DNA of 32,000 nt from an uncultured archaeon. Lineage in GTDB: Archaea > Iainarchaeota > Iainarchaeia > Iainarchaeales > CSSED10-239. Both the position numbers and the translations under genes were made by a program. The stretch covers positions 52,779 through 84,778 of the forward strand of contig CAZQEL010000001.1 in assembly GCA_964591795.1 (NCBI GenBank), read 5' to 3'. Of this stretch, positions 1-31,170 are shown piece by piece; positions within the stretch are counted from its first letter, which is position 1; each line of letters starts with the position of its first letter. The notes beneath the pieces are model-generated. The model made no database searches, was not told the DNA's origin, and worked only from the letters and a program-made list of their open reading frames with translations.

Positions 1-3000
1 GTAATAAAAACCATTTAAACTTTGAATTACTTGTTCTTGAGGACTTAAAGGATATAATACTGTTCTTTGTGATATGAATTCTTCAGCTTTATTTATTCTG
101 TTTAAAACAACTTGAGTTAATTGAGTTGAATCACAATATTTTTCAGAACATCTATTAATATCTTGAACTGACCAATCCCAATCTAATAATACATTTGGAA
201 CTGCACCAGAACCAGTTTTACCAGTTTTACCAGTATCTGTAACACAATCTTGAACTACCAAATTATAATTTTGTGTTTCTTCTGGTTTAGTAATAAAAAA
301 TCCAAATCTATAGTTTCCAATCTTTTCAGAATTTGCAAATGCAGGATCTTGTATTTCAACTGAATCTTCAAGTGTTGGATTAAATTCATAGTTTTTAAAA
401 TAATATTTCTTTGAATCATTATTAATGTGACTATATATGTTATCAGTAAAACTAAATTGTAATGGTTTTATTCCAGATTGCTCTGGCCATAATGTTTCAT
501 TAACTTTACAAGTATAAAACATTTCAGTTTCAAGTTGTATTCTATTTCTAGTTGGTTTTGCACCATAACATTTAATTGATTGAGATAAAACTCCATCTTC
601 AATTGTTGGATTAAATGAATTATCACAATTTCTATTTTTTATTATTTGAGAATAATAATCTTCAATACTTGAATTAGGATTATTACATAAAACATAATCT
701 GTTAAAGATAAATCAGCGTCTTTTGTAAGTCTATCTTTAATTTTATTATAAATTTTATCTGAATCTTGTGTTCTTGTAATTAAATCATTATAAGTATAAT
801 ATCTAGCACCAGTAATATCAAAAATATTTAAATAAGAAGATTCATCGGATACATCATCTACAGTGATTATTTTTAAAAATTCACCATTAGAAAGTGTATA
901 CTTTTGAGGAACATCTAAATATTTATTATTTAAAACTGGATATGCAAATTCATTTTTCCAAGAAGTTGCTGCCCAAGAAACTAAAACAATCACAGCTAAA
1001 GTAATCCAACCATAAACAGGAATAGCAGCTAAAACTGCAGCAAATCCAACAGATCCAGCTGCAGTAGCACTAGCAACTGCAATTTCAAGCGCTGCAGCAG
1101 TAGCAATACTTAAACCAACCGCAGTAACAGTTGCTGCAGCTAAAACAGTTATACCAATTGCAGCAGCAACAGGCATAGCACCTTCATCAGTAGTACCCAT
1201 AAATTCTAAATTTTCTAAGGATTTATAATTCATTTTTTGGAAAGCATCATCTTGTTTATTAAAAGTTGATGACAAATAATCAGAAAAGGTAGATGTAACA
1301 GTAACTCCATTTTGAGCAATTTGAGCTTTATATTGTTCAACATCCTGAACTGTAGGAATAGAATTAACATAATCCCAAGGAGTCTGTTCTAAATTATTAT
1401 TATATAATCTTACACTTTCAGAAACTTTAGTAGTATCTGAAATTTCAATAAAAGGATCCTCCATCCATAAACCACTAGAATCTTTTGCATTTATTTTTAA
1501 TAAAGCATAAGCTGAAGTAACTTCACGTCCAATATTATTAACAACAGATATTTTATTGTTTAAAACATAAGCACCAGGAGCAATAGTTGAATCTTTTCTT
1601 TTAATTGAAACAGTTTTTTCTGAGTCTAAAAGACTAAAATTTAAAATACCATTTTCTTCATCAGTATTATCAATAGATAAATCTCTACAGGAATAATCAT
1701 TTCCTTCACAAAGATCCATTTTTAATGTTGCTTTACCAAAACATTCGTTTTTAATAGTTAGATCTTTAGCTACAGTATCCTCAAGAACAAAAAGACCACC
1801 AGAATTAATTTTTTCTCCACCATCATAATAGGATAAACATTGTGTTAAATCCATAATTGATATATTTGCTTTTAATAAAATATCATTAGAACCTTTATTT
1901 ACAAAAGTTAAACCCTCTTCTGTTTCTACTTGAGCATTTAAATAAATATCAGTTTTTACTTCTGCAAATTTAGCACCATTTGTGTTAAATGCAATTTCAA
2001 CAGTATATTCTTCTTCAGGTCTCATTTCATTAATTAAAATTCTATAATAATTTTCTGATAATTGTATTTGATTAGAAGCACCTGAACCAATTAATTTTAA
2101 GAAATAAATACCATATCTATCTCCATTAGATTTAATTTTTGCTTGAACATTCTTAATTGTTATAGGTAAATTTCCTTCTTTAGAGATACAAGTGTTTTTT
2201 ATTTTTAAAGTTGTAGATTGGGTTGTTGTTGAAACAACTGTATTCCATTCACCAGCACTTTGAGTAACAACTAAACAATCATCTTCTAAAACACCGTTTC
2301 CAACAGATAATTTTACATTAACAGGAATATTAAATAAATATTTTTGATTATTTAATAAATAAGTGGCAGTTAAAGCACCTAAAATATTTTCACTTACAGA
2401 ATGTGATTGAGCACTTTCAGAAGGTGCAAATTTAATTAAAATTTCTTTAGATTCGTTTGCAGGTATTACAAAACCATCAGGTGTACTAATTATTTGATTA
2501 TTAAGATAATTAACAGTTTGTAAAAGATTTAATAAATAGGATTTATTAAAAGAAACATCCTGTTCATTAAATTGATTTAAAATTAATGGATATGCAGTTT
2601 TATTTTTAAGTTCTAAAGTATATATCTCCCCATCCATATTTGTCTTATGAATAAATACTTCTAATGGTGAATTTGAATTAATTATTTCAGAATTATTAAA
2701 AATATCAATAATATCTCTAGTAATTGAAAATTCAACTGGATCTGCAAAATATTTAGATTTAATAGATTCAATTATAAAAGTTTCTCCTGGTCTTAAAGAT
2801 GGAAGACTAATTGTAGCTTTTCCTTCTGCATCAGTTGTTCTACCAGTTGAAACTATAGTTGTTCCAGTTATTGTTTTTTGTAAAATATTAATATTTGCAC
2901 TCTCAACAGCATTTCCAGTAGTATCTTTAACAATTACGGTTAATGTAAATGGAACACCAGGTACAATATTTTTAGGTTCATAATCAACTATCATTTTATC

Positions 3001-11700: not shown

Positions 11701-14313
11701 GTTTTTAAAATCAAGTCCTTCATCTATATTTTCTAATATAAATCTTGAAGATAAATATCTTGATTCTGGTGAATTATTTGTTAATGTAAAAGTATATTTA
11801 TATTTTTTATTTGGTTTTGCTCCAAAACCATCTGTTACTTCATATCTTAAATCATCTAAAGTGTCAACTATATTTGAAGAAAAACAAAAATCTGTTGAAC
11901 AAATAAGTTCGTCACCAACACCATAGGTCATACTTTCATAAACATCATAGTATTCTACATTTTCATTAGGACCTAAATACTCACTGTATGTTTCATAATC
12001 ATCATTATTATTAAAACCATAACCTAATGCAAATATTTTAATTTCCTCACCAAATGCAGCAATATCTTTAACATTTATTGTTGCTGCAATTTCATATGAG
12101 TTATAGAAACCTAATATTCCAGAATAATCTATAGGTCCTTTTTTTAAAGTTGCTTGAACCCATTTAGAATTACCTTCAGTTGAACTATCATCATCACTAA
12201 AACCTTCACTTTCATGAGGAGCATTTAAATTAAATTGTGTATATTTTAAAACACTATCAATATATGGTACATCAATATTTTTAATGAAAATATTATCATT
12301 TTCAATCATTGAACTTGTACCTGTTCTTAACATAAAACCAATTTCATCAAAACTATCGTCACCAGTTCTATTTTGTGGAACTAAAAAATTGTATCTAACT
12401 TCATAGTCAGTACCTGCTGTAAGATTATCTTTAACTTCTTGCCCTTCTTTATATATTCCTACAAAAACCATTCTTGGTTTTGTGTTAGAACTATTTTGAC
12501 TAAATAAAGTTACATTTAATTCTGCATTGTTAGTTGCAGTTACTCTTATAAATCTTGATTGAGTTTTACCATAATCTCCTTCTATTCCAGGAGAAGCCAC
12601 AACATAATAATCGTTATCAGCATCAAGGAAAAATTCCATAGTTCCTTGTGAGTTTGTAAGTTCGCTTTTTATTGGTATTGCTGGCATAAAATTATAATAA
12701 CTAAATCTATCATATACATCTACTCTTGCATATGGTACTGGGTTATCATCTTTATCAACAACAGTTACCTTAAGAGAACTTTCATTTATTCCCATTGGAA
12801 TATTTATAACACCTGTATTATTAGGGTATTTAACATTAAATTCAAATTCTGCAGATTCTCCAACAGTACTTCCTTTAACAGCTTTTGCTATATATTTACC
12901 TGATGAAATATCAATTACAACATTACCATCATAATTAGCTAATGCTGGTTTATAGTCAGTTAAAAATCCAGTTTCTGCATCATATAAAACAACTTTTGCA
13001 AATTTAAAACCTTTACCATCCCAAGTTATAACTCTTACATTTAAAGGTTGTAAAGTAGCTGGTGTTATTAAAGTTAATGGAATAACAATAGGATTTGATG
13101 GAATTGTACTACTTGCAAACACAAGTTTTCTTTGGATTAAATAACCCTCAGCATCAACAACTACGTTATAATCTCTAATTTCAGGAACTGTAAAAAGCAC
13201 ATATCCATTAACATCTGAATATTTAGTTTCAATAACATTATTTATTTCAGATTTTAAACTTACTTCAGCATTTGAAATTGAAACATTTGAACCAATTATT
13301 CTAACTGAAATATATCCTTTAACATCTGAATTTAAAACTATATTTTTAGTTGAACTTTCTGATAAATAATATGTTTGAGATTGAGATGAATAAATTGGAA
13401 TTATTCTAACATCTGAAAAGTTTGCTATATACTCACCAGAAGCTAAATTTTCAATAGTACAATTTCCTGTACTTGATGTTGTACATGTATCAATTGTACC
13501 AAAATTATTTGTTAAATTAATTTTAATATTTGATAGGGTTGCACCTAAACTATTAGCTACATTAAAAACTAATTTTAAGTCATCAGTGTCTCCAAAATTA
13601 ATTTCTTGAGGATCAAGAATAATTGTTGAAGTATTATCATTTATTGCAAAGTTATATTTAGATAAATAACCATCAAAAGTTATTGAATCAATTGTAAGTG
13701 TACATTCAGGAGATGCATCCACTACAATTAAACCATTTGAAAATGATTTAGGACTAGGTGCAATTACACTATTTAAACATTTAAAAGAAACTGAACCTGA
13801 TTTATTAACTACTTGATTTGTTTGTGAATCAATAGCACTAAAAGAATAGCTAACTGTTTCTGGAGTTAATCTTATTGGTTCTAAAGCAAGAGTTACGGTT
13901 TCATCATTATCTTCAGAAAAGAAAAATTCGTTAAATGTATCATAACCATCTTCTGCAATATCTATCTGATAAGATGAATTTTTTAGGACTCTAAACTCAT
14001 CAGTTAAACCATCAGCATTAGTGTTTATGCTTGTCATGTCATTTGTTGTAGTAACAACTAACGACAGATTTTCTAAAAAGGTACCACTTTCTGCATCAAT
14101 TACCTTAAATTGAATACTTACAGAATCACCAGCTCCTCCATTAGGGACAATTAGTAAGATTAATCCTGCAATTAAAATAACCATCAAAAGAATACACAAA
14201 ACAAAAGAAGGCATAACCTTATCTATTTTATCAGTAACTTTATATATTCCGGTTTTTTCTACAAAATCATAGTATTTATCTTCTAAATAATAGTAAAATT
14301 TTTTTAGTCCCAT
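8725..14313 (-). CDS. Giant N-terminally anchored surface protein, paralog C, with CarboxypepD_reg/PEGA-like repeats and a Cys-knot C-terminus
   Basis: 1862-aa ORF, far too long to be open by chance in AT-rich DNA. ATG at 14313 with GAGGT 8 nt upstream; TAA stop. N-terminus MGLKKFYYYLEDKYYDFVEK... followed by the TM helix FVLCILLMVILIAGLILLIV. Confidence 0.95.
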   Translation of the reverse strand: MGLKKFYYYLEDKYYDFVEKTGIYKVTDKIDKVMPSFVLCILLMVILIAGLILLIVPNGGAGDSVSIQFKVIDAESGTFLENLSLVVTTTNDMTSINTNADGLTDEFRVLKNSSYQIDIAEDGYDTFNEFFFSEDNDETVTLALEPIRLTPETVSYSFSAIDSQTNQVVNKSGSVSFKCLNSVIAPSPKSFSNGLIVVDASPECTLTIDSITFDGYLSKYNFAINDNTSTIILDPQEINFGDTDDLKLVFNVANSLGATLSNIKINLTNNFGTIDTCTTSSTGNCTIENLASGEYIANFSDVRIIPIYSSQSQTYYLSESSTKNIVLNSDVKGYISVRIIGSNVSISNAEVSLKSEINNVIETKYSDVNGYVLFTVPEIRDYNVVVDAEGYLIQRKLVFASSTIPSNPIVIPLTLITPATLQPLNVRVITWDGKGFKFAKVVLYDAETGFLTDYKPALANYDGNVVIDISSGKYIAKAVKGSTVGESAEFEFNVKYPNNTGVINIPMGINESSLKVTVVDKDDNPVPYARVDVYDRFSYYNFMPAIPIKSELTNSQGTMEFFLDADNDYYVVASPGIEGDYGKTQSRFIRVTATNNAELNVTLFSQNSSNTKPRMVFVGIYKEGQEVKDNLTAGTDYEVRYNFLVPQNRTGDDSFDEIGFMLRTGTSSMIENDNIFIKNIDVPYIDSVLKYTQFNLNAPHESEGFSDDDSSTEGNSKWVQATLKKGPIDYSGILGFYNSYEIAATINVKDIAAFGEEIKIFALGYGFNNNDDYETYSEYLGPNENVEYYDVYESMTYGVGDELICSTDFCFSSNIVDTLDDLRYEVTDGFGAKPNKKYKYTFTLTNNSPESRYLSSRFILENIDEGLDFKNIKIILPNGGVYEESNPIAYEFDIGITQLLQRQKVTGEITFMPKLKGTRNLSIKFISDQKIKFVNQLFIDVSSDKTFKVTVDPQIIPSGKNFNLLIKEKDASTLLPVRDATVTIKDKFKDIIKGPLPIPVTGEITVSQIPAQGPNDVIYVYVTSPEYETSITDMKATDKLFKITPKKLAYSLNIFNEKQKTENFTISNISPIDLTIESLEIKGKNLTVVDVLSINNDLLNSVGTVVKGFDTLSDFPDNTDSSKQIPLKISLNPRAETISEVQNLSSRLSIVLASGDNKWVTEIPITINIGFDGMLDNANCLAVSNTFWKEVSLDKPVETTFMINNTCTINGKNMPLSGGLEARVLFESNPQGKFVVSIDNRFVELTHGNYRNLLDTFDRDRSYPVILKYEPIGRMKGTVKGTIQFRSLNSTGTGNQELLTEVAFEIDVTNLRDCAVFSKNTLNVGQIADEFTIENKACPTDITYRLSCDDCKGLIVTPRNEITVPASGTSENVTVKSMGATPGAYILNVYSGMTDSRQTENLIKKIKVYVRPQDYCIDLERYEFDLYRSDYSENTGLMMNAAAYDTTNIINLCYGTEVNGTFKVADNAKWQMAFVSFLRDGLLSGTLSALLQGKLFSSSKDKAQSLLDSVEKSTDSKVIAAAAFLKTAIATGDKGEIKEASVALETALKNSDASGVNSVTSNPQNIDEKALVKKVDTFVETYTSPTTIRKNGELVFTNSTSSEYKDWIDLNELNQKLKDALAGTDIAVRDSAYDSLKSAFDKFKSDYPSTDPVTPNNSSTYTVDVVTDGYSVNGTSYLAASYEADNNWIAFATKANSLKDKESITVAENTELNSLIAKLVSKSPAAQTFDAVEIVLASAESMSFSGTNYSASEYTENSWNSAMGAYNNAATKFNTSSKLQDNLDVYKNEAAVALNLLEVLDNTSETCDASFSIKPNGDKYVYRCDGTDRARGCQIETGKVFATFNACSNTSHGVYEPCCSYK
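12499..14130 (-). other. Protein-level array of CarboxypepD_reg/PEGA-like repeats in C (residues ~62-605)
   Basis: Examples: LKVTVVDKDDNPVPYARVDVYDRFS...TNSQGTMEFFLDADNDYYVVASPG and LNVRVITWDGKGFKFAKVVLYDAETGFLTDYKPALANYDGNVVIDISSGKYIAKAV. Confidence 0.6.
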
Positions 14314-23232: not shown

Positions 23233-26200
23233 TTATTTAATCTTTTTTATTGAACAAGAATCAATTCTTGTAGTTGGCATTGATGAAATAATACTTGGGT
23301 CTTGAGTATTATATGGATTAATATCAATTACATATCTTGACTTATAATCCCCATCTGAAGGTTCAATATATTCCATGCTTGCAACATACAAAATATTTTT
23401 TGTAAAAGTTGCATCTTTTTTAAATTCAATTGAATAATTTAAATTTGTCATACCATCATCTTGAAGACTTCTAATACCAGCCCAATTACCTAAAAGACCA
23501 CAACCAAGTCCTCTTGCAAATCCACCAACTCCTCTTACCCACTTAGCTGATTTTCCAACTTTAGCTACTTTTGATCCATTTAATTTTTTAAAATCATTTA
23601 ATAATTCATCAGGAACTACATATTTACCTGTAGTTGGATCTAAAGTTAAACCTTTTAATTTATTACTTAAACTAACTAAAGCAGCTTTATCTACTTTCTT
23701 TGCTACTAATTGTGAATTTAAAGTAGTTAAATCAGAAGAAGCTTTACGTGCTGCTTTATTACCAATTTGTACTTTATTAGGGTCTAATTTTACTTTTCTT
23801 GGATTTAAATTTGATCTTGCATTATTTTTTTCAATAGCTTTAATTTTATCTTCTAAAACCTTAATTGAGTCATCAGTATTTTTAATAAGTCCAGTTTTAG
23901 GATCATCTAAACTATTTACAATATTATTACGTGAAACATTATCAATTAAATTAACAGCACTAGTTGTTCCTACACCAGATATATGTAAATTAGATTTTGC
24001 TTGTATAAGTCTATTTGCGAATAAATCTTTACCTACCAAATGACTATTTTTTCCAACCATAGATCCATTTTTTATTATCCTAGAAAAATCATCAATTTCA
24101 GTTGAAGATAATTTAGTAAAATCAATTGGATTTGTATGAGAATATATTTTTGTATATAATTGATTAAATTTAGCTAAATCAGTAGGATCTGCAGCAACGA
24201 ATTTAATTGGATCTACACCAAGAAAATATCTATCAAAATTTTTTAATTGACTATTAAATAATTTAAATTCTTGAGATGACAAACCAGTTCCAGGAATTAT
24301 TGGTTGAACCTGAGTAAAAGGATCTGTACCTAAATCTAATACAGTTTCGCCTATTCTTAAAGGAGCAGCAGCAGCAGAAGAACCTGTTTTAAAAATACCT
24401 GCAGTTAATGAACCCATAGTACCTGCAAACCAAGTACTAACTGATTCTGCAGCAGGACCAAATAATTCAAAGTTCTTTGATGAAAACAAACTTCCTAAAA
24501 CTAAATCAATACCCTTACCTATTCCACCATCTCCATTATACATAGTAGATGCAAACACATCTAATGCAGGAAGACCACATGAAAATGCAAGACAATCAAT
24601 TGCAGCTCCAAAAATTGATGCTGGCATAACTAAAGCTGATACCGCATAACATCCAGCACAAACTGCAGAACATTTACCAAAGTAAATTCCAGCATTGGTT
24701 AAGGATTTATTAAGTTTTGAATTATATTTTTGATCAGAATCTTTTATAGTACAATTTAAATTTTCATAATCAAAAAACAACTTTGTATTCCTTGAACTAT
24801 ATTCAGAACTATTAATTACCTTTTCAATAACAGCACAAAACTCTTCTTTTTCTTCAGGAGAATATATTTTACTCCAATCAATAAGTGCATAGTTATTTTG
24901 AGGGAATACTTTATTATCTTCTTTATTATGTTCAGTAACAATTGTTTGATATGTTTTTAATAAAAAGCTTTCAGGAGTAATTGCACATGAAGTCAATAGC
25001 ACATCAACATTTGCAATTCTATTTCCAATAACACCTTCACCCGAATAAATACTGTTTGCAGTAATTTTAATTTTTTGATTTACAAACAAACTAATATCAT
25101 TTGGATTTTGAGGTTTAACACAAAATAAAAAGTTACTATCTTTATTTTGTATAAGGTTTAAATTAATATTATCATTTAAAGAATCGCCTTCATTTAATTT
25201 AAATCCACTAATTAAGCCTTCTCTTTTTTCAGAAGTTATGTTTAAAGTTTCATCAATTGAGGATTTAATTTTCAAAGAAGTACAACTAACATCTTCATTT
25301 AAAGGAATAATAGGTTCTTTAGTTGTAAACATTAAATCTCCTGCTTTAATAGTATCTAAAATAAGCATATAGGAATTATCTTCTGAGACACATACTTTCA
25401 AAGAAGTGTCATTCTTAACTACCATTGCACGTATTACATTGACAAAGTCTTTTGAAACTTTACTTGGAACTAAATTATTTGAAGTAACATATTTTTTATT
25501 TAAAATAACATTTATTTGTTCAGGAGCAGATATATTATAATCTTTAAGATCACTAAATACTATTTTTCCAAGTGCAACATTATTTTCTGTAATATCATCT
25601 ATTGAAACATTTAAAGTATTATTTCTACTAGATAAAATATCATAGGAATAAACATATCTTGTATTAGGATCAGTTCCAAATTTACCAATAGCTTTAATTA
25701 AATCTTTAGAAAGATTAGAATCACCTGTAAATAAAGTTACCCAACTTCCTTCTCTTTGATTTTTAGATAAACCTAAATCCCAAGGCATGAAATTTAAATA
25801 GTTTGTAATTTTCTTTTTACAATGTGATGTTTGTTCATATTTTAAAACGTTTAAATAATAGTAAGCTCTATCTGGATAGATTGAATCTGGACTAGCTGCA
25901 ATAAATCCATCAATTTCAACTGTGTATTTTCCACAACCCTTAAATTGATTAGATAAAAATATTTTATTTCCACCAACATAAACACCCAAAGCACTTTTGT
26001 TATTTATTAAAAATGGATTTGTTTCAATAAAATAATTCTTAAAAGAATAATTTGATTTGTTTAAAGCATATTTAACAAGATCAACTGAAACCATATCATT
26101 TTGCATATAAAAAGTAAATTCTAATGGATTTATATCTCCAATCTCAGAAATTTTACAAAATCCATTTCTTGCATCAGCTACAGAACAACCAGTATTCATT

Positions 26201-29200
26201 AATTTAGCTTGAGCTTGAGAGGATACTTGTTTTATTTGACTTTGAAGTTCATCTACTTTTTTTAATAAAAATTCAGCAGAAGATAAACCATCACAATAAC
26301 CTGAACTCTCAGTACAAGCACCTATTGATACAACCGGTGTATTTATTGTACTTGTATTTTGAGAATCACTGCATAAAGGTAATGAAGAAATATTAGAAAC
26401 CATTTTATCTCTAGATTCTTCTACAGAAGCATCCTGTATATTTATAGACACAGTAAAATCTTCAGATGAAACTTGGTTACCCGAATTTAAAAGTCTACCT
26501 AAAATTATCATTGGCATTTTTGGAGAACCACCAAGTGAAATAGCACTAAGTTCTAAATTATAAGTTGCTGTTTGATTAGGATAAATTATATTTCCAGAAC
26601 CACTAGCTGGAGATATCTTTAAAGGATTTAACCCAAATGTTTCTGTGTAAGCATCAAGTTTTTTATCAATACCAATAACTGAAACTGGTTCTGCACAATA
26701 ATTTGTTAAAGAAACATTTCTATTTCTTTTTTCTCCAACTTTTAAAGTAAAATCTAAATGTTTATTACTTACTTTTAAACAATTTGGAGAAGAAATTGTA
26801 AACACAATTTGAGTTGTAGCACTAATTGGATTGTTAATACCAGCCGCTTTACCTGTAACTAAAATAAACATATTGTCAGTTGTTGATTTTTTAATATTCA
26901 CTTCAAATTGAAGATCAATAGGTATTGTTTTACCTGGTTCTAAAACATTAATTTCACGAGGATATTCTGTAACTCCAATATTTGAAGAAACTATTTTTGG
27001 ATATTGACTTATTTGAATATCAGTAATTGGAACAGTACCAATATTTTTAATCATAAATCTAGTTGAGTTAACTGCAGATTGTTGAGCATTAAGTTGTGAA
27101 ATTGGAACTTGTATTAATGAAGGCATAATCCATAAAGCCTTACTTAAATCTAAAAGATCTATATTTAATAATGATGGAGAAACTGAATAATAATTGTTAT
27201 TCCATAAAATATCATAGGTATATTTTGCTGCTTGTTTTCTATTAGAATGATTTTTAATAATTACATCATACACTTTTTCTTCTCCTGCAAGAACAGTAAC
27301 ATTACCTAAAGATAATTCAATATCTTTGTTTGCAGACATAGAAGATGAAGTATATTGTGGTGTAAAAGTTACATTTTGAGAACAATTATTTTTTATAATA
27401 AAGAAAGTTGTGTTCTCTGTATATTCACTTGTTGTATTTGGCATTGATGAATAATAAGTATAATAATTAGGATCAGTATAGGTTCTAGTATTAGATGAAC
27501 CTGAATAGTTTCTAGTATTATTCTGAGATGACATATATTCGTCATAACTATTATAGTTTTGAGATTGAGCTAATAATGGATTTTGATTATTATTGGAATT
27601 ATAATTATAACTGGTATAAGGTGTATTAAACACATCAGGTGCAGTGTATTCTAAATTTAAACCAACAAAAGAATTTACTGCATTTGGAGTAATTGTTAAA
27701 CAATCACTTAAAATAAGCCCTTTATTTATTCTTACAGGAATTATTTTTGTGATTTCTCTAGAACCAATTGTTGCAAAGATTGGTATTTTTACGTATGCAG
27801 TTGTAAATTGTAAATCATTACCAATTGTAACAACAGCTTCAAAAATTTGAGAAGATTTTTTATTAATTGAAATTGCACCTCTAATATCAACAAAAACATC
27901 ACTAGGGCCTTCAATCCAAATAGGATCTCCAAATCTTATATTATTTGCAATATAATCTCCATTGTTTTGTATTGAAAAACTTTGAGATGAAGTTATTTGA
28001 TCAGTTCCTAAGTTAATTAGAATTTCCTGTGGAGTTAAAATAAATAAAGAATCATCAACAATATATAATTCTTTTTCAAAAGGAGTATAACCGTAACTAT
28101 CAACAACCATGGTTATTGATGAAAAATTAAATTTATTATCTATTGTGTATTTTCCATTTTCACCATTAGTACCTTCTGCTTTTACAAATAAAATAAATTC
28201 AAGAGTTTCAGTATTATAAAATGAAATTACAGCATTATTAATTGAAGATAAATTAGATGCATCTAAAACATCAACAGTAAATTTAGAACCATATGGTACA
28301 AATGAATCAGGATTAACCACTACTTTCATTTCTTTTTTATCATGAATATTAAAACTTAATCTATTATCAGAAACTGAATTACCTAAAATTGTATCAGTTG
28401 ATTTAAGATCAATGTAAGCTGTACCAATTTCTTTTGCAATAAAAGAAAGATATATCTTTTTTAAAACATTACCTGAAATTGATAGGCCATCTCTTGTAAC
28501 TTCAAAACTATCAATTGATTGAGATGCATTATTTAAAGATCTATTATCTGAAAATAAATTTAATGACACCAATGGAAAACTCTTTGATGTTTCTGCTAAA
28601 ATATTTAATTGAGTATTTTTTAAAGAATAAATATTTGTTTCAAGAATATATTCTTCGCCTTTGACAGCATAGAAATCCTCAACACTAAATTCATTATCTT
28701 TTGAATCTATAAACTTATTAGAAATACAAAAATTATCTTTACAATCTAAAGGTACATCAAACAAATCAACAACAACTTCTTTTGTGTTTGCATAAAGAGC
28801 TGATTTTTTGTTTGTTGAATAACTTTGATTTAAAAAAGTGTCTATTGGATCTCTAAAATATAATTTATTTTCTTCGTATAAAACTCTATATTTAAATTTT
28901 AATTTTGTAACAGATAAATCAACAGCACTTACTTTAATTTTAATTTGTTTGTTTGAAAGTGGTATTGTTGACACCCATTTAAGTTCAAGCCATTTATTTA
29001 AAACATCAGAAGAACCCTCATTTAAAAAATCTGTTGACTGCATTCCAGGTTCTGGAGCAGGATTATAGGAAGTACTATATTTAAAATTTGTAATATCCAT
29101 GGCCATAAAACCATTTATACCATAACTCATTTCTTCAGAATCAGTTTGAGTATCATCTCCTGCTCTGATATGCACTTCTCCCTTATAAACGTTTTCTGGG

Positions 29201-31170
29201 AACAAAACATCAAATACTAAATAATATTCTTTGTTTAAACTAATATAATTTGTAGTAATACCTTTTGCATCAACAACACCTACAAAATCAATTATTGGAT
29301 AATCAGTATTATTTACTTCTTTTGAAAAATCAACACGTATGTATCCTGATGAATCAGCTTCATCAGTTGTAAAATTAACAGAGGATATATTAAAGTTTTC
29401 ATCAGTATATTCAGCTAATAAATCTTTATATCCTTGAGAATTAAAAATAACTTCTTCACCTAAAGATAAATTTTGATCAAAAAGAACAGTTCCATCTTTT
29501 GCTTTAATTATAAGACTACCTTTTGTTAACTTAAATCCATTTTCATCAAACAAATCAAGCTTTATCATTTTAGATGCATTATCAACTACAAAAATAATTT
29601 TATTTTCCTTTAATGAATCAATTGTAATTTCTTCAGAAACTTGTGTATCTCCAACTTGAGCATAAATATTATAAATTGTGTTTATTCTTAGTGGAATTGA
29701 AAGCGCACCAGATAGATCAGTTTCAAGAGAAGTATTATATGGTATTTCAGATGAATCTTCTAAGGATACTAATTTTTCATGAATTTTAATATATGCTTTT
29801 GGAACTGGCATATTTTTTTCATCAACAACAAACACATTAAGTATTGCGCTGTTTGTAACATCTATCTTGTCTAAACTAAAATCTGCTTTTGTGTCTATGT
29901 TTAAATTAAAAGAATTATGTTCACAAAAATAATCAAGTTTACATGCAGTTATTAAAATATTTGAATCAACGTTTATTCCTTTAAAATTAATAAACCCTAA
30001 GGCATCAGTTTTACCTGAGTCAATAACAATATTATTTAAATTATATGCTGTAACTAAAACATCATCAAGAACTAAAAAATTACTTTTTGCTCTTGCTGTA
30101 ACATCAATAAAATTACCACCAAGTTCTAAAACAACATTATATGTCATATCAGGATTAATTATTCTATATGAAACATTATCATCACTAATATATGTTTTAT
30201 AACTTTCTTTTTTAACTTTATAAGTAATTGTTTCTCCAGAGTTAACATACACTAAAGCTTTTCCATCAATTGTTGTTTGAGATCCTATTTCATCATTAGA
30301 AAGATTGAATACAGAAACTTCTGCATCATTAACAAAATTTTCAGAAGCGTCTAAAACTACAAAAGTAACTTTACTTTTTCCTTCAAAAGAAAGAGAAGCA
30401 ATATTCATTTCAATTACTTTTTCTTGTTCTAATGAATTTATTCTGTAATTACTTTCTTTAAAATCTTCATAATTATCAGCTTTTGCTATAAGTTCAATAT
30501 CTTTGCTAATTGGAACTTCTATAATAATATAATGATTATTAAAAATATCTACAATTCCTTCAACACTCTCAGTTTTATTATTAATTGTAAAATTTGCAGT
30601 AACCATTCCAGAAGATATTTTTCTTTGATTATCTCTGTCTTTTAATTGTATTTTTAAAATACCATATTCTACTTTTTCAGAAAAAACAACAGATACTTGT
30701 TCTTCTTTATTATTTATTGTTAATTGTTTTTGATAATCAGGATATCCTGGTTTTGTTGCTTTTAAAGTATAGGTGTTACCTATCTTAAGTTTTATTTTTT
30801 GAGAAACACCATCATCAATAGCTCCTGTAAAAACTTCTTTAATAGCGTCATCGCTTATCGTTAAATAAATATCGGACACTGAAGTACCTTGATAATCAGA
30901 AACATTAAAAGTTAAAGTTGACTGACTTGAGAAAGAAAAAAATATTAAAAAAATAATTATGAAAATTAATAATAATAATATGGAGGCCATAATTGCAAAC
31001 GCAGGAAGCCCTTTTTGTTCTAAATAATTATTCCAAGTGTTTATTGGAATTCCTTTTTCAGTAAGCCAATTAGACATTGAAGTATATTTGTCTTCTAAAT
31101 AATTATAGAATCTTGAAAATATATTTTGATTTGAAGTAGTAGATTTTTTTTTTCTAACCATATTTTTCAT
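23233..31170 (-). CDS. Giant N-terminally anchored surface protein, paralog E, with CarboxypepD_reg/PEGA-like repeats, an N/Y/S-rich insert, a hydrophobic Gly/Ala/Cys module and a basic tail
   Basis: 2645-aa ORF with ATG at 31170. Basic N-terminus MKNMVRKKKSTT, then FSRFYNYLEDKYTSMSNWLTEKGIPINTWNNYLEQKGLPAF, then the TM helix AIMASILLLLIFIIIFLIFF. Confidence 0.95.
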   Translation of the reverse strand: MKNMVRKKKSTTSNQNIFSRFYNYLEDKYTSMSNWLTEKGIPINTWNNYLEQKGLPAFAIMASILLLLIFIIIFLIFFSFSSQSTLTFNVSDYQGTSVSDIYLTISDDAIKEVFTGAIDDGVSQKIKLKIGNTYTLKATKPGYPDYQKQLTINNKEEQVSVVFSEKVEYGILKIQLKDRDNQRKISSGMVTANFTINNKTESVEGIVDIFNNHYIIIEVPISKDIELIAKADNYEDFKESNYRINSLEQEKVIEMNIASLSFEGKSKVTFVVLDASENFVNDAEVSVFNLSNDEIGSQTTIDGKALVYVNSGETITYKVKKESYKTYISDDNVSYRIINPDMTYNVVLELGGNFIDVTARAKSNFLVLDDVLVTAYNLNNIVIDSGKTDALGFINFKGINVDSNILITACKLDYFCEHNSFNLNIDTKADFSLDKIDVTNSAILNVFVVDEKNMPVPKAYIKIHEKLVSLEDSSEIPYNTSLETDLSGALSIPLRINTIYNIYAQVGDTQVSEEITIDSLKENKIIFVVDNASKMIKLDLFDENGFKLTKGSLIIKAKDGTVLFDQNLSLGEEVIFNSQGYKDLLAEYTDENFNISSVNFTTDEADSSGYIRVDFSKEVNNTDYPIIDFVGVVDAKGITTNYISLNKEYYLVFDVLFPENVYKGEVHIRAGDDTQTDSEEMSYGINGFMAMDITNFKYSTSYNPAPEPGMQSTDFLNEGSSDVLNKWLELKWVSTIPLSNKQIKIKVSAVDLSVTKLKFKYRVLYEENKLYFRDPIDTFLNQSYSTNKKSALYANTKEVVVDLFDVPLDCKDNFCISNKFIDSKDNEFSVEDFYAVKGEEYILETNIYSLKNTQLNILAETSKSFPLVSLNLFSDNRSLNNASQSIDSFEVTRDGLSISGNVLKKIYLSFIAKEIGTAYIDLKSTDTILGNSVSDNRLSFNIHDKKEMKVVVNPDSFVPYGSKFTVDVLDASNLSSINNAVISFYNTETLEFILFVKAEGTNGENGKYTIDNKFNFSSITMVVDSYGYTPFEKELYIVDDSLFILTPQEILINLGTDQITSSQSFSIQNNGDYIANNIRFGDPIWIEGPSDVFVDIRGAISINKKSSQIFEAVVTIGNDLQFTTAYVKIPIFATIGSREITKIIPVRINKGLILSDCLTITPNAVNSFVGLNLEYTAPDVFNTPYTSYNYNSNNNQNPLLAQSQNYNSYDEYMSSQNNTRNYSGSSNTRTYTDPNYYTYYSSMPNTTSEYTENTTFFIIKNNCSQNVTFTPQYTSSSMSANKDIELSLGNVTVLAGEEKVYDVIIKNHSNRKQAAKYTYDILWNNNYYSVSPSLLNIDLLDLSKALWIMPSLIQVPISQLNAQQSAVNSTRFMIKNIGTVPITDIQISQYPKIVSSNIGVTEYPREINVLEPGKTIPIDLQFEVNIKKSTTDNMFILVTGKAAGINNPISATTQIVFTISSPNCLKVSNKHLDFTLKVGEKRNRNVSLTNYCAEPVSVIGIDKKLDAYTETFGLNPLKISPASGSGNIIYPNQTATYNLELSAISLGGSPKMPMIILGRLLNSGNQVSSEDFTVSINIQDASVEESRDKMVSNISSLPLCSDSQNTSTINTPVVSIGACTESSGYCDGLSSAEFLLKKVDELQSQIKQVSSQAQAKLMNTGCSVADARNGFCKISEIGDINPLEFTFYMQNDMVSVDLVKYALNKSNYSFKNYFIETNPFLINNKSALGVYVGGNKIFLSNQFKGCGKYTVEIDGFIAASPDSIYPDRAYYYLNVLKYEQTSHCKKKITNYLNFMPWDLGLSKNQREGSWVTLFTGDSNLSKDLIKAIGKFGTDPNTRYVYSYDILSSRNNTLNVSIDDITENNVALGKIVFSDLKDYNISAPEQINVILNKKYVTSNNLVPSKVSKDFVNVIRAMVVKNDTSLKVCVSEDNSYMLILDTIKAGDLMFTTKEPIIPLNEDVSCTSLKIKSSIDETLNITSEKREGLISGFKLNEGDSLNDNINLNLIQNKDSNFLFCVKPQNPNDISLFVNQKIKITANSIYSGEGVIGNRIANVDVLLTSCAITPESFLLKTYQTIVTEHNKEDNKVFPQNNYALIDWSKIYSPEEKEEFCAVIEKVINSSEYSSRNTKLFFDYENLNCTIKDSDQKYNSKLNKSLTNAGIYFGKCSAVCAGCYAVSALVMPASIFGAAIDCLAFSCGLPALDVFASTMYNGDGGIGKGIDLVLGSLFSSKNFELFGPAAESVSTWFAGTMGSLTAGIFKTGSSAAAAPLRIGETVLDLGTDPFTQVQPIIPGTGLSSQEFKLFNSQLKNFDRYFLGVDPIKFVAADPTDLAKFNQLYTKIYSHTNPIDFTKLSSTEIDDFSRIIKNGSMVGKNSHLVGKDLFANRLIQAKSNLHISGVGTTSAVNLIDNVSRNNIVNSLDDPKTGLIKNTDDSIKVLEDKIKAIEKNNARSNLNPRKVKLDPNKVQIGNKAARKASSDLTTLNSQLVAKKVDKAALVSLSNKLKGLTLDPTTGKYVVPDELLNDFKKLNGSKVAKVGKSAKWVRGVGGFARGLGCGLLGNWAGIRSLQDDGMTNLNYSIEFKKDATFTKNILYVASMEYIEPSDGDYKSRYVIDINPYNTQDPSIISSMPTTRIDSCSIKKIK
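24346..24696 (-). other. Gly/Ala/Cys-rich hydrophobic module in E (residues 2159-2275), probably membrane-interacting
   Basis: NAGIYFGKCSAVCAGCYAVSALVMPASIFGAAIDCLAFSCGLPALDVFASTMYNGDGGIGKGIDLVLGSLFSSKNFELFGPAAESVSTWFAGTMGSLTAGIFKTGSSAAAAPLRIGE. Confidence 0.7.
27406..27627 (-). other. N/Y/S/T-rich low-complexity segment in E (residues ~1182-1255)
   Basis: NTPYTSYNYNSNNNQNPLLAQSQNYNSYDEYMSSQNNTRNYSGSSNTRTYTDPNYYTYYSSMPNTTSEYTENTT. It sits in the same position relative to flanking conserved residues as the D segment. Confidence 0.85.
29317..30921 (-). other. Protein-level array of CarboxypepD_reg/PEGA-like repeats in E (residues ~84-618)
   Basis: Examples: VTFVVLDASENFVNDAEVSVFNLSNDEIGSQTTIDGKALVYVNSGETITYKVKKESY and LNVFVVDEKNMPVPKAYIKIHEK...ETDLSGALSIPLRINTIYNIYAQ. 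Confidence 0.6.
31144..31153 (-). repeat. A10 homopolymer inside codons 6-9 of gene E
   Basis: Minus strand reads ATG AAA AAT ATG GTT AGA AAA AAA AAA TCT (plus-strand T10 at 31144-31153). Confidence 0.9.

Follow-up and report, generated by a model that had tools for sequence, protein, structure and literature searches.

How the far C-terminal part of a giant archaeal surface protein is placed relative to the membrane is the question raised by gene E (2645 amino acid residues; 31170-23233, minus strand) in the DNA analyzed here, a 32,000-nucleotide stretch from an uncultured archaeon (contig CAZQEL010000001.1, positions 52,779 to 84,778; hereafter the window). E encodes an N-terminally anchored surface protein of the Iainarchaeota/Diapherotrites type, within the DPANN archaea (Diapherotrites, Parvarchaeota, Aenigmarchaeota, Nanoarchaeota, together with Nanohaloarchaeota). 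A reading made from the letters alone (the sequence-only reading) had singled out positions 23233-24696, which correctly delimit the end of E, from residue 2159 (whose codon starts with base 24696) to residue 2645 and the stop codon at 23233-23235, and had described there a hydrophobic module rich in Gly, Ala, and Cys (residues 2159-2275), followed by a Lys-rich tail of 370 residues. Two interpretations had been offered: a second membrane anchor with the tail in the cytoplasm, or a latent segment that inserts into the membrane of another cell. Our analysis led to a third, which we consider probable: E is an N-in/C-out fibre, and the region is its extracellular distal tip, with a Cys-framed hairpin, which engages the envelope of a partner cell. 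The observations that carry this interpretation are family membership, conservation, marginal hydrophobicity, the charge pattern, the co-occurrence of Cys residues, and fusions with hydrolases. To our knowledge, how DPANN archaea attach to and exchange with their partners is unsettled, and we know of no host for Diapherotrites/Iainarchaeota.

Orthologues of E

Approximately 30 related loci were found, and every named source was a DPANN archaeon: Candidatus (Ca.) Iainarchaeum, Ca. Forterrea multitransposorum (complete genome), Diapherotrites, and, distantly, Micrarchaeota. When residues 2140-2645 of E were used as the query of an exhaustive HMMER search, only seven cluster representatives were returned, and the C-terminal region gave only one fragment (P0001) in two word-indexed searches for homologues; the family reached its present size when genomes and metagenomes were scanned with a full-length profile and with patterns. 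Orthologues with 32-60% identity occurred in Ca. Iainarchaeum, Ca. Forterrea, and metagenome-assembled genomes of Diapherotrites. The conservation counts below refer to 21 distinct orthologues, full-length invariance to five orthologues, and the hydrophobicity scan to 13.

In the complete Forterrea genome (CP045477.1), L011 is a full-length orthologue (54% identity over residues 3-2640), and the gene order matches that of the window: the E-type gene, a pilin-like gene (~560 residues), and a paralogue (~2300 residues). "Five large membrane-anchored proteins", probably involved in cell-cell interaction, were reported for this archaeon (Probst and Banfield 2018, PMC5905446), and E is, as judged from sequence and synteny, an orthologue of one of them. 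Several such giant genes stand in a row in the window as well, and E shows the features of the Forterrea-type giant cluster: a length of more than 1,800 residues, an N-terminal anchor, and giants in tandem. On the other hand, the C-terminal Cys-framed hairpin, basic helices, beta cap, and hydrolase fusions are not described in that paper. The tip domains had no match in Pfam, NCBIfam, PHROGs, or PDB, and belong, as components not yet described, to a known but uncharacterised family. In a 78%-identical relative (L001; JGI 3300009345, contig Ga0123253_103173), the E gene was called as several proteins; it is interrupted by scaffold gaps (runs of N) and not truly split, so that P0001 and similar database entries represent pieces of a single giant gene.

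Hydrophobicity of the module

The enrichment in small residues and Cys that the sequence-only reading had pointed out is real: residues 2159-2275 contained 14.5% Gly, 16.2% Ala, and 4.3% Cys, compared with 4.5%, 4.0%, and 1.0%, respectively, in residues 81-2158, and every string that it had quoted was found in the sequence. The count of Cys in the module was five (2167, 2171, 2174, 2193, and 2198) instead of the reported seven, and the "several" segments of transmembrane (TM) length were an overstatement, since only residues 2168-2203 reached a Kyte-Doolittle value of at least 1.6.

The true membrane anchor is located at residues 53-86 (30913..31014, minus strand), with a Kyte-Doolittle value of 3.40 and a crude Hessa sum of -7.4 kcal/mol, and equivalent N-terminal anchors were present in all 13 orthologues scanned (-3.9 to -7.6 kcal/mol). 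The maximum of the module was 1.83 on the Kyte-Doolittle scale, as against ~1.4 for the top peak elsewhere in the ectodomain of E, and its best 19-mer had a crude Hessa sum of +3.1 kcal/mol (+9 for the best elsewhere in the ectodomain). Across the 13 orthologues, the best 19-mer of the module ranged from +2.4 to +7.1 kcal/mol and was TM-grade in none; in the Iainarchaeota-type orthologues, values were 1.4-2.0 (Kyte-Doolittle) and +2.4 to +4.3 kcal/mol (Hessa), and the value of +7.1 belonged to the Micrarchaeota relative. The module core held two to five charged residues in most orthologues (e.g., IAGQVKFLKDILIDCGIF), and the hairpin in most of them contained Lys, Asp, Asn, or Gln. No stretch of the module combined ~19 charge-free residues with an insertion energy near or below zero, as a stop-transfer TM segment would.

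The GxxxG/A-like spacing ascribed to the module did not withstand comparison with shuffled sequences: small-xxx-small pairs and triples equalled the shuffle means (P 0.5-0.7). No Pfam match of E to the profiles Gly-zipper_Omp, Gly-zipper_YMGG, Gly-zipper_OmpA, and Rick_17kDa_Anti was obtained at E <= 0.1. A glycine-zipper nature of the module was rejected because the small-xxx-small spacing is at chance level.

Cysteine framework of the tip

The tip begins with a putative all-alpha domain (residues 2058-2160; 24691..24999, minus strand), which contains the conserved Cys2062 and the pair Cys2112/Cys2140, and in which helices were predicted with low confidence in both AlphaFold2 runs. It is followed by the module core (residues 2161-2204; 24559..24690, minus strand), a hydrophobic helix, a Met-Pro turn, and a second helix, with the layout C2167-x3-C2171-x2-C2174 ... 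D2192-C2193-x4-C2198-G-L-P. Over the 21 orthologues, this framework read C-x3-C(-x2-C)...[DN]-C-x(3-4)-C-G-[ILV]-P: C2167 and C2198 were present in all, C2171 and C2193 in 19, and C2174 in 16 (lost in one clade). Residues invariant among the five full-length orthologues around the module were K2155, N2159, Y2163, F2164, C2167, C2171, C2174, D2192, C2193, F2196, C2198, G2199, and P2201. The second half of the module (residues 2205-2275; 24346..24558, minus strand) consists of Gly/Ala/Ser-rich amphipathic helices (predicted at 2217-2230 and 2238-2258), and is net acidic and weakly conserved: D2222 is its sole invariant residue, and composition is otherwise kept.

Two further pairs of Cys were retained or lost together. 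C2112 and C2140 were both kept in 18 orthologues and both gone in three, and C2557 and C2639, in the tail, were both kept in 16 and both gone in the L019/L021/L023/L036 clade; P0014 was ambiguous at the latter two positions because two alignments disagreed. In full-length alignments at 35-56% identity, 27 of the 28 Cys of E were invariant, none of them being located in residues 1-409, and those of the module and tail were conserved like those of the ectodomain. Since the Cys residues are conserved in this manner and are kept or lost in pairs, as are structural disulfides in an exported protein, those of the framework probably staple the hairpin by disulfides.

Two AlphaFold2 runs were performed: residues 2107-2645 (eight sequences; mean pLDDT of 44) and residues 2058-2301 (12 sequences; mean pLDDT of 49.7). 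Because of these low scores, only secondary structure was taken from the models. Both runs gave, with low confidence, a helix at 2145-2181, a break at Met-Pro, a helix at 2186-2210, and shorter helices up to ~2258. In such a hairpin, the C-x3-C of helix 1 and the C-x4-C of helix 2 would face each other. A similar arrangement, with Cys pairs one helical turn apart on consecutive helices, is found in the twin-CX3C/CX9C proteins (small Tim and CHCH), which are an analogy only: there is no homology, the spacing in helix 2 of E is x4 (x3 in one clade), a third Cys is added, and E is an archaeal surface protein.

The five Cys and the conserved Asp (CX3CX2C plus D-C-x4-C) might instead bind a metal or an Fe-S cluster, since the cluster motif of radical-SAM proteins has the same CX3CX2C spacing. 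We regard this as very improbable: an entire clade has Leu or Ala in place of the third Cys, the framework is further reduced in P0014 and L022, no radical-SAM or ferredoxin match was found in Pfam or NCBIfam, and the protein is exported, with its other Cys in apparent pairs.

Parts and charge of the tail

The basic nature of the 370-residue tail was confirmed in E: its net charge is +14, with 10.8% Lys and a pI of 9.47, compared with 7.4% and 4.80 in the ectodomain. The charge was concentrated in residues ~2364-2560, the most positive stretch of 190 residues in E, and the flanks on both sides were acidic. In the 12 orthologues aligned there, the 25 residues after the module had a net charge of 0 to -3, and residues 2202-2275 had 0 to -8 in all 21. 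The net charge of the whole tail varied from -12 to +21 among orthologues, and only segment 2433-2560 was conserved as basic (net positive in 19 of the 21; +2 to +17). The positively charged flank that the positive-inside rule predicts for a bitopic second anchor was not found in these orthologues.

Four parts were distinguished in the tail. The first, a variable linker and helical region (residues 2276-2413; 23932..24345, minus strand), starts as Pro/Thr/Gly-rich sequence and continues with the motif S.xE[IL]DDF..I[IV]; it was unalignable even with the 78%-identical L001, and its length was 77-239 residues among orthologues. The second is a basic, Lys-rich, coiled-coil-like helical hairpin (residues 2414-2539; 23554..23931, minus strand), consisting of predicted helices. 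A Gly-rich amphipathic helix follows (residues 2540-2571; 23458..23553, minus strand; hydrophobic moment of 0.39), with the conserved motif W.RG.GGFARGLGCGLLGNWAG and a GxxxGxxxG including C2557; this GxxxGxxxG (GFARGLGCG at 2550-2558) is the single one and is separate from the module, and C2557, G2561, G2565, and G2573 are invariant. The fourth is a C-terminal beta-rich cap (residues 2572-2645; 23236..23457, minus strand) with predicted strands, the invariant residues L2577, F2589, K2591, N2592, Y2595, D2637, and C2639, and the ending R-I-D-S-C2639. The AlphaFold2 model of the tail agreed, with low confidence, on a long helical hairpin (2414-2455/2464-2506), a helix at 2540-2571, and beta strands to the end. 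Opposite the tail, a stop-free stretch of 192 codons runs antisense (window 23465-24040, plus strand); the codon composition of the sense strand most likely accounts for it, and it showed no sign of a gene.

In two orthologues, a murein hydrolase domain was fused at the extreme C-terminus, directly after the conserved R-L-D-K-C end: NLPC_P60 in P0007 (residues 2537-2649; L002 12200-12787; Pfam E 5.5e-10, 39.6 bits, cutoff 23) and SLT in P0013 (residues 2551-2601; L024; Pfam E 5.9e-12, 45.6 bits, cutoff 21.3). Extensions past the R-x-D-x-C end amounted to 139-246 residues in P0007, P0013, P0014, and the L019 clade, to 49 in L022, and to at most 16 in the other 13 orthologues. These lengths were considered with regard to a polymorphic-toxin-like architecture, which would combine a conserved stalk and variable C-terminal effector domains with a cognate immunity gene downstream.

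The extension of the L019 clade (~220 residues; L019 13079-13768, L021 18017-18706, L023 18521-19210, and also L036 and L038-L040) is conserved within the clade and ends with SGYA[TL]YD. By eye, it appeared NlpC/P60- or CHAP-like (a Cys in NYCAAFV, and PGAIIGI...HVVVYVGK...IIHQ); it is a lead only, since no support came from Pfam, a PDB profile search, hhalign to the domain of P0007, or tblastn against phages. In L002, two additional small open reading frames (ORFs; 81 and 191 residues; 12842-13788) were located between the NlpC/P60-bearing orthologue and the pilin-like gene and were absent from the other loci; an immunity-like role for them is pure speculation.

Topology of E

In the proposed architecture, E would be anchored once at the N-terminus (type-II), with a short basic head in the cytoplasm and ~2000 residues of beta-rich domains extending outward. 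The head (residues 1-52; 31015..31170, minus strand; pI of 9.6) carries a motif shared with the paralogues C and D, FSRFYNYLEDKY...WLTEKGIP, and its invariant columns are F18, S19, E26, Y29, W35, G40, and I41. The pre-anchor motif F.(R/Y)FY..LE.KY ... KGIP was observed in C (N-terminus at 14313), D (21277), and E, and is invariant among E orthologues; it may be a shared docking or export signal.

In the first of its two interpretations, the sequence-only reading had placed the tail in the cytoplasm behind a second anchor, here taken as single-pass. A precedent for this topology within DPANN is provided by the SPEARE-type giants of nanohaloarchaea, which have a signal peptide and an Ig array, followed by a genuine TM domain and a VirB4/TraG-like ATPase in the cytosol (PMC10266531). 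Like E, they are DPANN giants in which Ig-like domains predominate and a hydrophobic element and one more region are located close to the C-terminus, and the tail of E is basic, as noted above. In contrast, E has an N-terminal signal-anchor, a hairpin that is not TM-grade, and an apparently extracellular tail, in which no ATPase or other cytoplasmic-type domain was detected in Pfam or NCBIfam. The flank directly after the module is acidic in all orthologues, the charge of the whole tail is variable, its Cys pair covaries, and NlpC/P60 and SLT domains are located at its end. These results contradict a cytoplasmic tail, and a single-pass second anchor is strongly disfavoured. The positive-inside rule does not reach a patch ~200 residues from a membrane segment, and the basic patch is outside its range because it starts ~200 residues downstream of the module. 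NlpC/P60 and SLT murein hydrolases cleave their peptidoglycan substrate outside the cytoplasm, and murein is absent from archaea; therefore, the C-terminus is exposed, and where these fusions occur it is directed at bacterial walls. The tail of E (residues 2276-2645) accordingly very likely lies outside the cell, and the fusions suggest bacterial partners for some of these DPANN lineages.

An exposed tail would also result if the module formed a re-entrant or two-span hairpin in the archaeon's own membrane, pinning a loop of ~2000 residues at both ends. Such a hairpin is in keeping with the tail Cys pair and the hydrolase fusions, and a parallel is found in the paralogue A (>1916 residues, minus strand), which exceeds the left end of the window: its deep segment (Hessa sum of ~0) precedes a domain homologous to the signal-peptide-bearing B, an order best fitted by an even number of spans. 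However, each helix in E has a value of +2.4 to +4.3 kcal/mol, in most orthologues, conserved positions of helix 2 are occupied by Lys, Asp, or Asn, and Cys conservation like that of the ectodomain argues for an oxidising, exposed site. We consider two spans in E to be quite improbable.

The deep segment of A is a 74-residue module rich in Ala, Gly, Thr, and Val (residues 1523-1596; window 961-1182, minus strand) and is far more hydrophobic than that of E (Kyte-Doolittle values of up to 2.44, crude Hessa sums of ~0). The tail after it (residues 1827-1892) is homologous to residues 297-385 of B (E 9e-7). The module of A is plausibly a real two-span membrane hairpin, and the idea of a second membrane attachment may suit A better than E. 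In the loci fetched, no other giant ORF had a deep TM-grade segment; the contigs carrying B run only 471 residues into A.

Putative role of the tip

For the fibre with an exposed tip, the following arrangement is proposed. The module would form the hydrophobic core of a small all-alpha domain (a helix-turn-helix with C2167/C2171 facing C2193/C2198) and would not act as a constitutive second transmembrane anchor. Behind it, a variable linker, the basic helical hairpin, the Gly-rich amphipathic helix, and a beta cap closed by the Cys pair 2557-2639 would follow, and in some lineages this conserved C-terminus would be prolonged by murein-degrading enzymes. The tip may bind the envelope of a partner cell, which would be bacterial at least sometimes; the basic helices may touch anionic surfaces, and the hydrophobic hairpin may serve as a structural core or a contact surface. 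Binding of the partner envelope is the most likely role, and is in line with the literature on these proteins. DPANN proteins of up to ~3000 residues, predicted to be extracellular and containing SLT, were proposed to bind and degrade bacterial walls (2021, PMC8204110), and one such family (fam00969) was reported for Pacearchaeota and Woesearchaeota (PMC8204110). The family member P0013 (2731 residues) with its C-terminal SLT is similar to these giants; E differs in having neither SLT nor another hydrolase, and its family and fam00969 were compared by description only.

Several points weigh against the exposed, non-inserted tip. The estimates of hydrophobicity are crude, since the Hessa sums include neither position nor length terms. 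An 8-residue deletion in the clade of the window strips most of the charges, which makes this hairpin more hydrophobic than those of other orthologues. The Cys count of the module (five) is odd, E itself lacks a hydrolase domain (Pfam), and both 3-D models were of low confidence (mean pLDDT of 44 and 49.7), too low to judge the disulfide geometry or the burial of the hairpin. The strongly hydrophobic deep module of A indicates that real deep membrane segments may exist in the gene cluster.

The second interpretation in the sequence-only reading, a latent element entering the membrane of another cell, was also considered. The stapled hairpin would then be membrane-active in the manner of the buried hydrophobic hairpin of colicin-type or Bcl-2-type pore domains or of a viral fusion peptide, becoming exposed on contact and entering the partner membrane, assisted by the basic helices and, in some lineages, by wall hydrolases, and would contribute to the cytoplasmic bridges between DPANN and their hosts. 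The module is distal in an N-anchored fibre and, apart from the anchor, is its most hydrophobic element (the best Hessa sums elsewhere in the ectodomain being +5 to +9.4 kcal/mol), either of the predicted helices has the length needed to cross a bilayer, the downstream basic segment is conserved in 19 of the 21 orthologues, and the NlpC/P60 and SLT fusions suggest an envelope-breaching tool. As an analogy, the colicin pore domain, the diphtheria toxin T domain, and the Bcl-2 family likewise have a Gly/Ala-rich hydrophobic helix-turn-helix within an amphipathic all-alpha domain; they lack the conserved Cys framework of E, and showed no sequence match or significant structural match to it. No homology with pore-forming or glycine-zipper families was found in Pfam, NCBIfam, PHROGs, or PDB, and searches of these databases with the C-terminal 506-545 residues returned nothing relevant. 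Foldseek against PDB (query model with a mean pLDDT of 49.7) gave no match with E < 1; its top matches, the alpha-pore-forming toxins AhlB and SmhB (E >= 1, TM-score of 0.14), came from this low-confidence model and were not used. Orthologues carry several charges in the hairpin, disulfides, if present, would limit unfolding, and spacing of the GxxxG type is at chance level. On balance, a latent membrane-active hairpin is unlikely. The more elaborate proposal, in which the stapled hairpin, the basic hairpin, and the Gly-rich helix together form a device for insertion into or fusion with the host membrane, and a murein hydrolase in some lineages breaches the bacterial envelope, is less likely still.

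Gene organization and paralogues

The window has a GC content of ~26%, and genes on the minus strand fill nearly all of it. E is preceded by a gene for a 111-residue membrane protein with three to four hydrophobic segments (31632-31297, minus strand), which has the exact same length of 111 codons and the same place in the relatives L002 and L007-L009. Directly after E, a 559-residue protein with a pilin-like N-terminus is encoded (23128-21449, minus strand). It starts with MLKNKRG/FNLFTALIALMLV, which resembles a class III (type IV pilin-like) signal, and an orthologue of 558-624 residues followed the E-type gene, directly or past small ORFs, in every relative examined. D (2307 residues), C (1862 residues), and B (973 residues) are next in the row, all on the minus strand. 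This order (the 111-residue protein, the E-type gene, a pilin-like gene of ~560-620 residues, and the next giant) was kept across relatives.

A, C, D, and E are distant paralogues in tandem across their first 1100-1400 residues, and all four combine a very hydrophobic anchor at the N-terminus with Ig-like or CarboxypepD_reg-type domains; the matches of E to Ig-like and CarboxypepD_reg domains were weak. In the middle of the ectodomain of E, a low-complexity linker rich in Asn, Gln, Tyr, and Ser was observed (window 27421-27648; residues ~1175-1250), as also in D (residues 1278-1410). The linker of E falls within the one kilobase of the gene row that has a positive GC skew, and it is enlarged to GYNNYNQSNYGSNNT repeats in the orthologue P0005.

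Part of the module, belonging to its second half, had been said to recur after the signal peptide of B and, weakly, in C. GKGL, SLFSS, and FKTFSS are present in B at residues 38-80, but homology was not significant: the best local alignment between E and B had a score of 31, whereas shuffled queries reached 38.5 on average. Similarly, LLQGKLFSSSKD is present in C at residue 1490, but without statistical support. The family profile of the module had no match in A, B, C, or D, and the motif letters (GKG, SLFSS) were not kept even in the closest orthologues of E. Homology of the module with B and C was rejected on these grounds (a score below shuffles, no profile match, and a motif unconserved in E orthologues).

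Implications

The main yield of this study is a corrected view of the region, with neither a second anchor nor a cytoplasmic tail. The vague term "large membrane-anchored protein" is replaced by a defined architecture: an N-terminal anchor, a long Ig-like stalk, and a conserved tip, for which residues 2058-2301 and 2414-2645 are defined constructs. No new mechanism is established; what is gained is a candidate element that can be tested and a clearer architecture of a protein for host interaction in DPANN. If the improbable insertion device were true, it would be a candidate, at the molecular level, for the means by which ultrasmall archaea open connections between their cytoplasm and that of their hosts, and it would be evidence for bacterial hosts of some Iainarchaeota-type DPANN. 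In some lineages, the C-terminus is a docking point for hydrolases of bacterial walls, which argues that some of these archaea touch bacteria.

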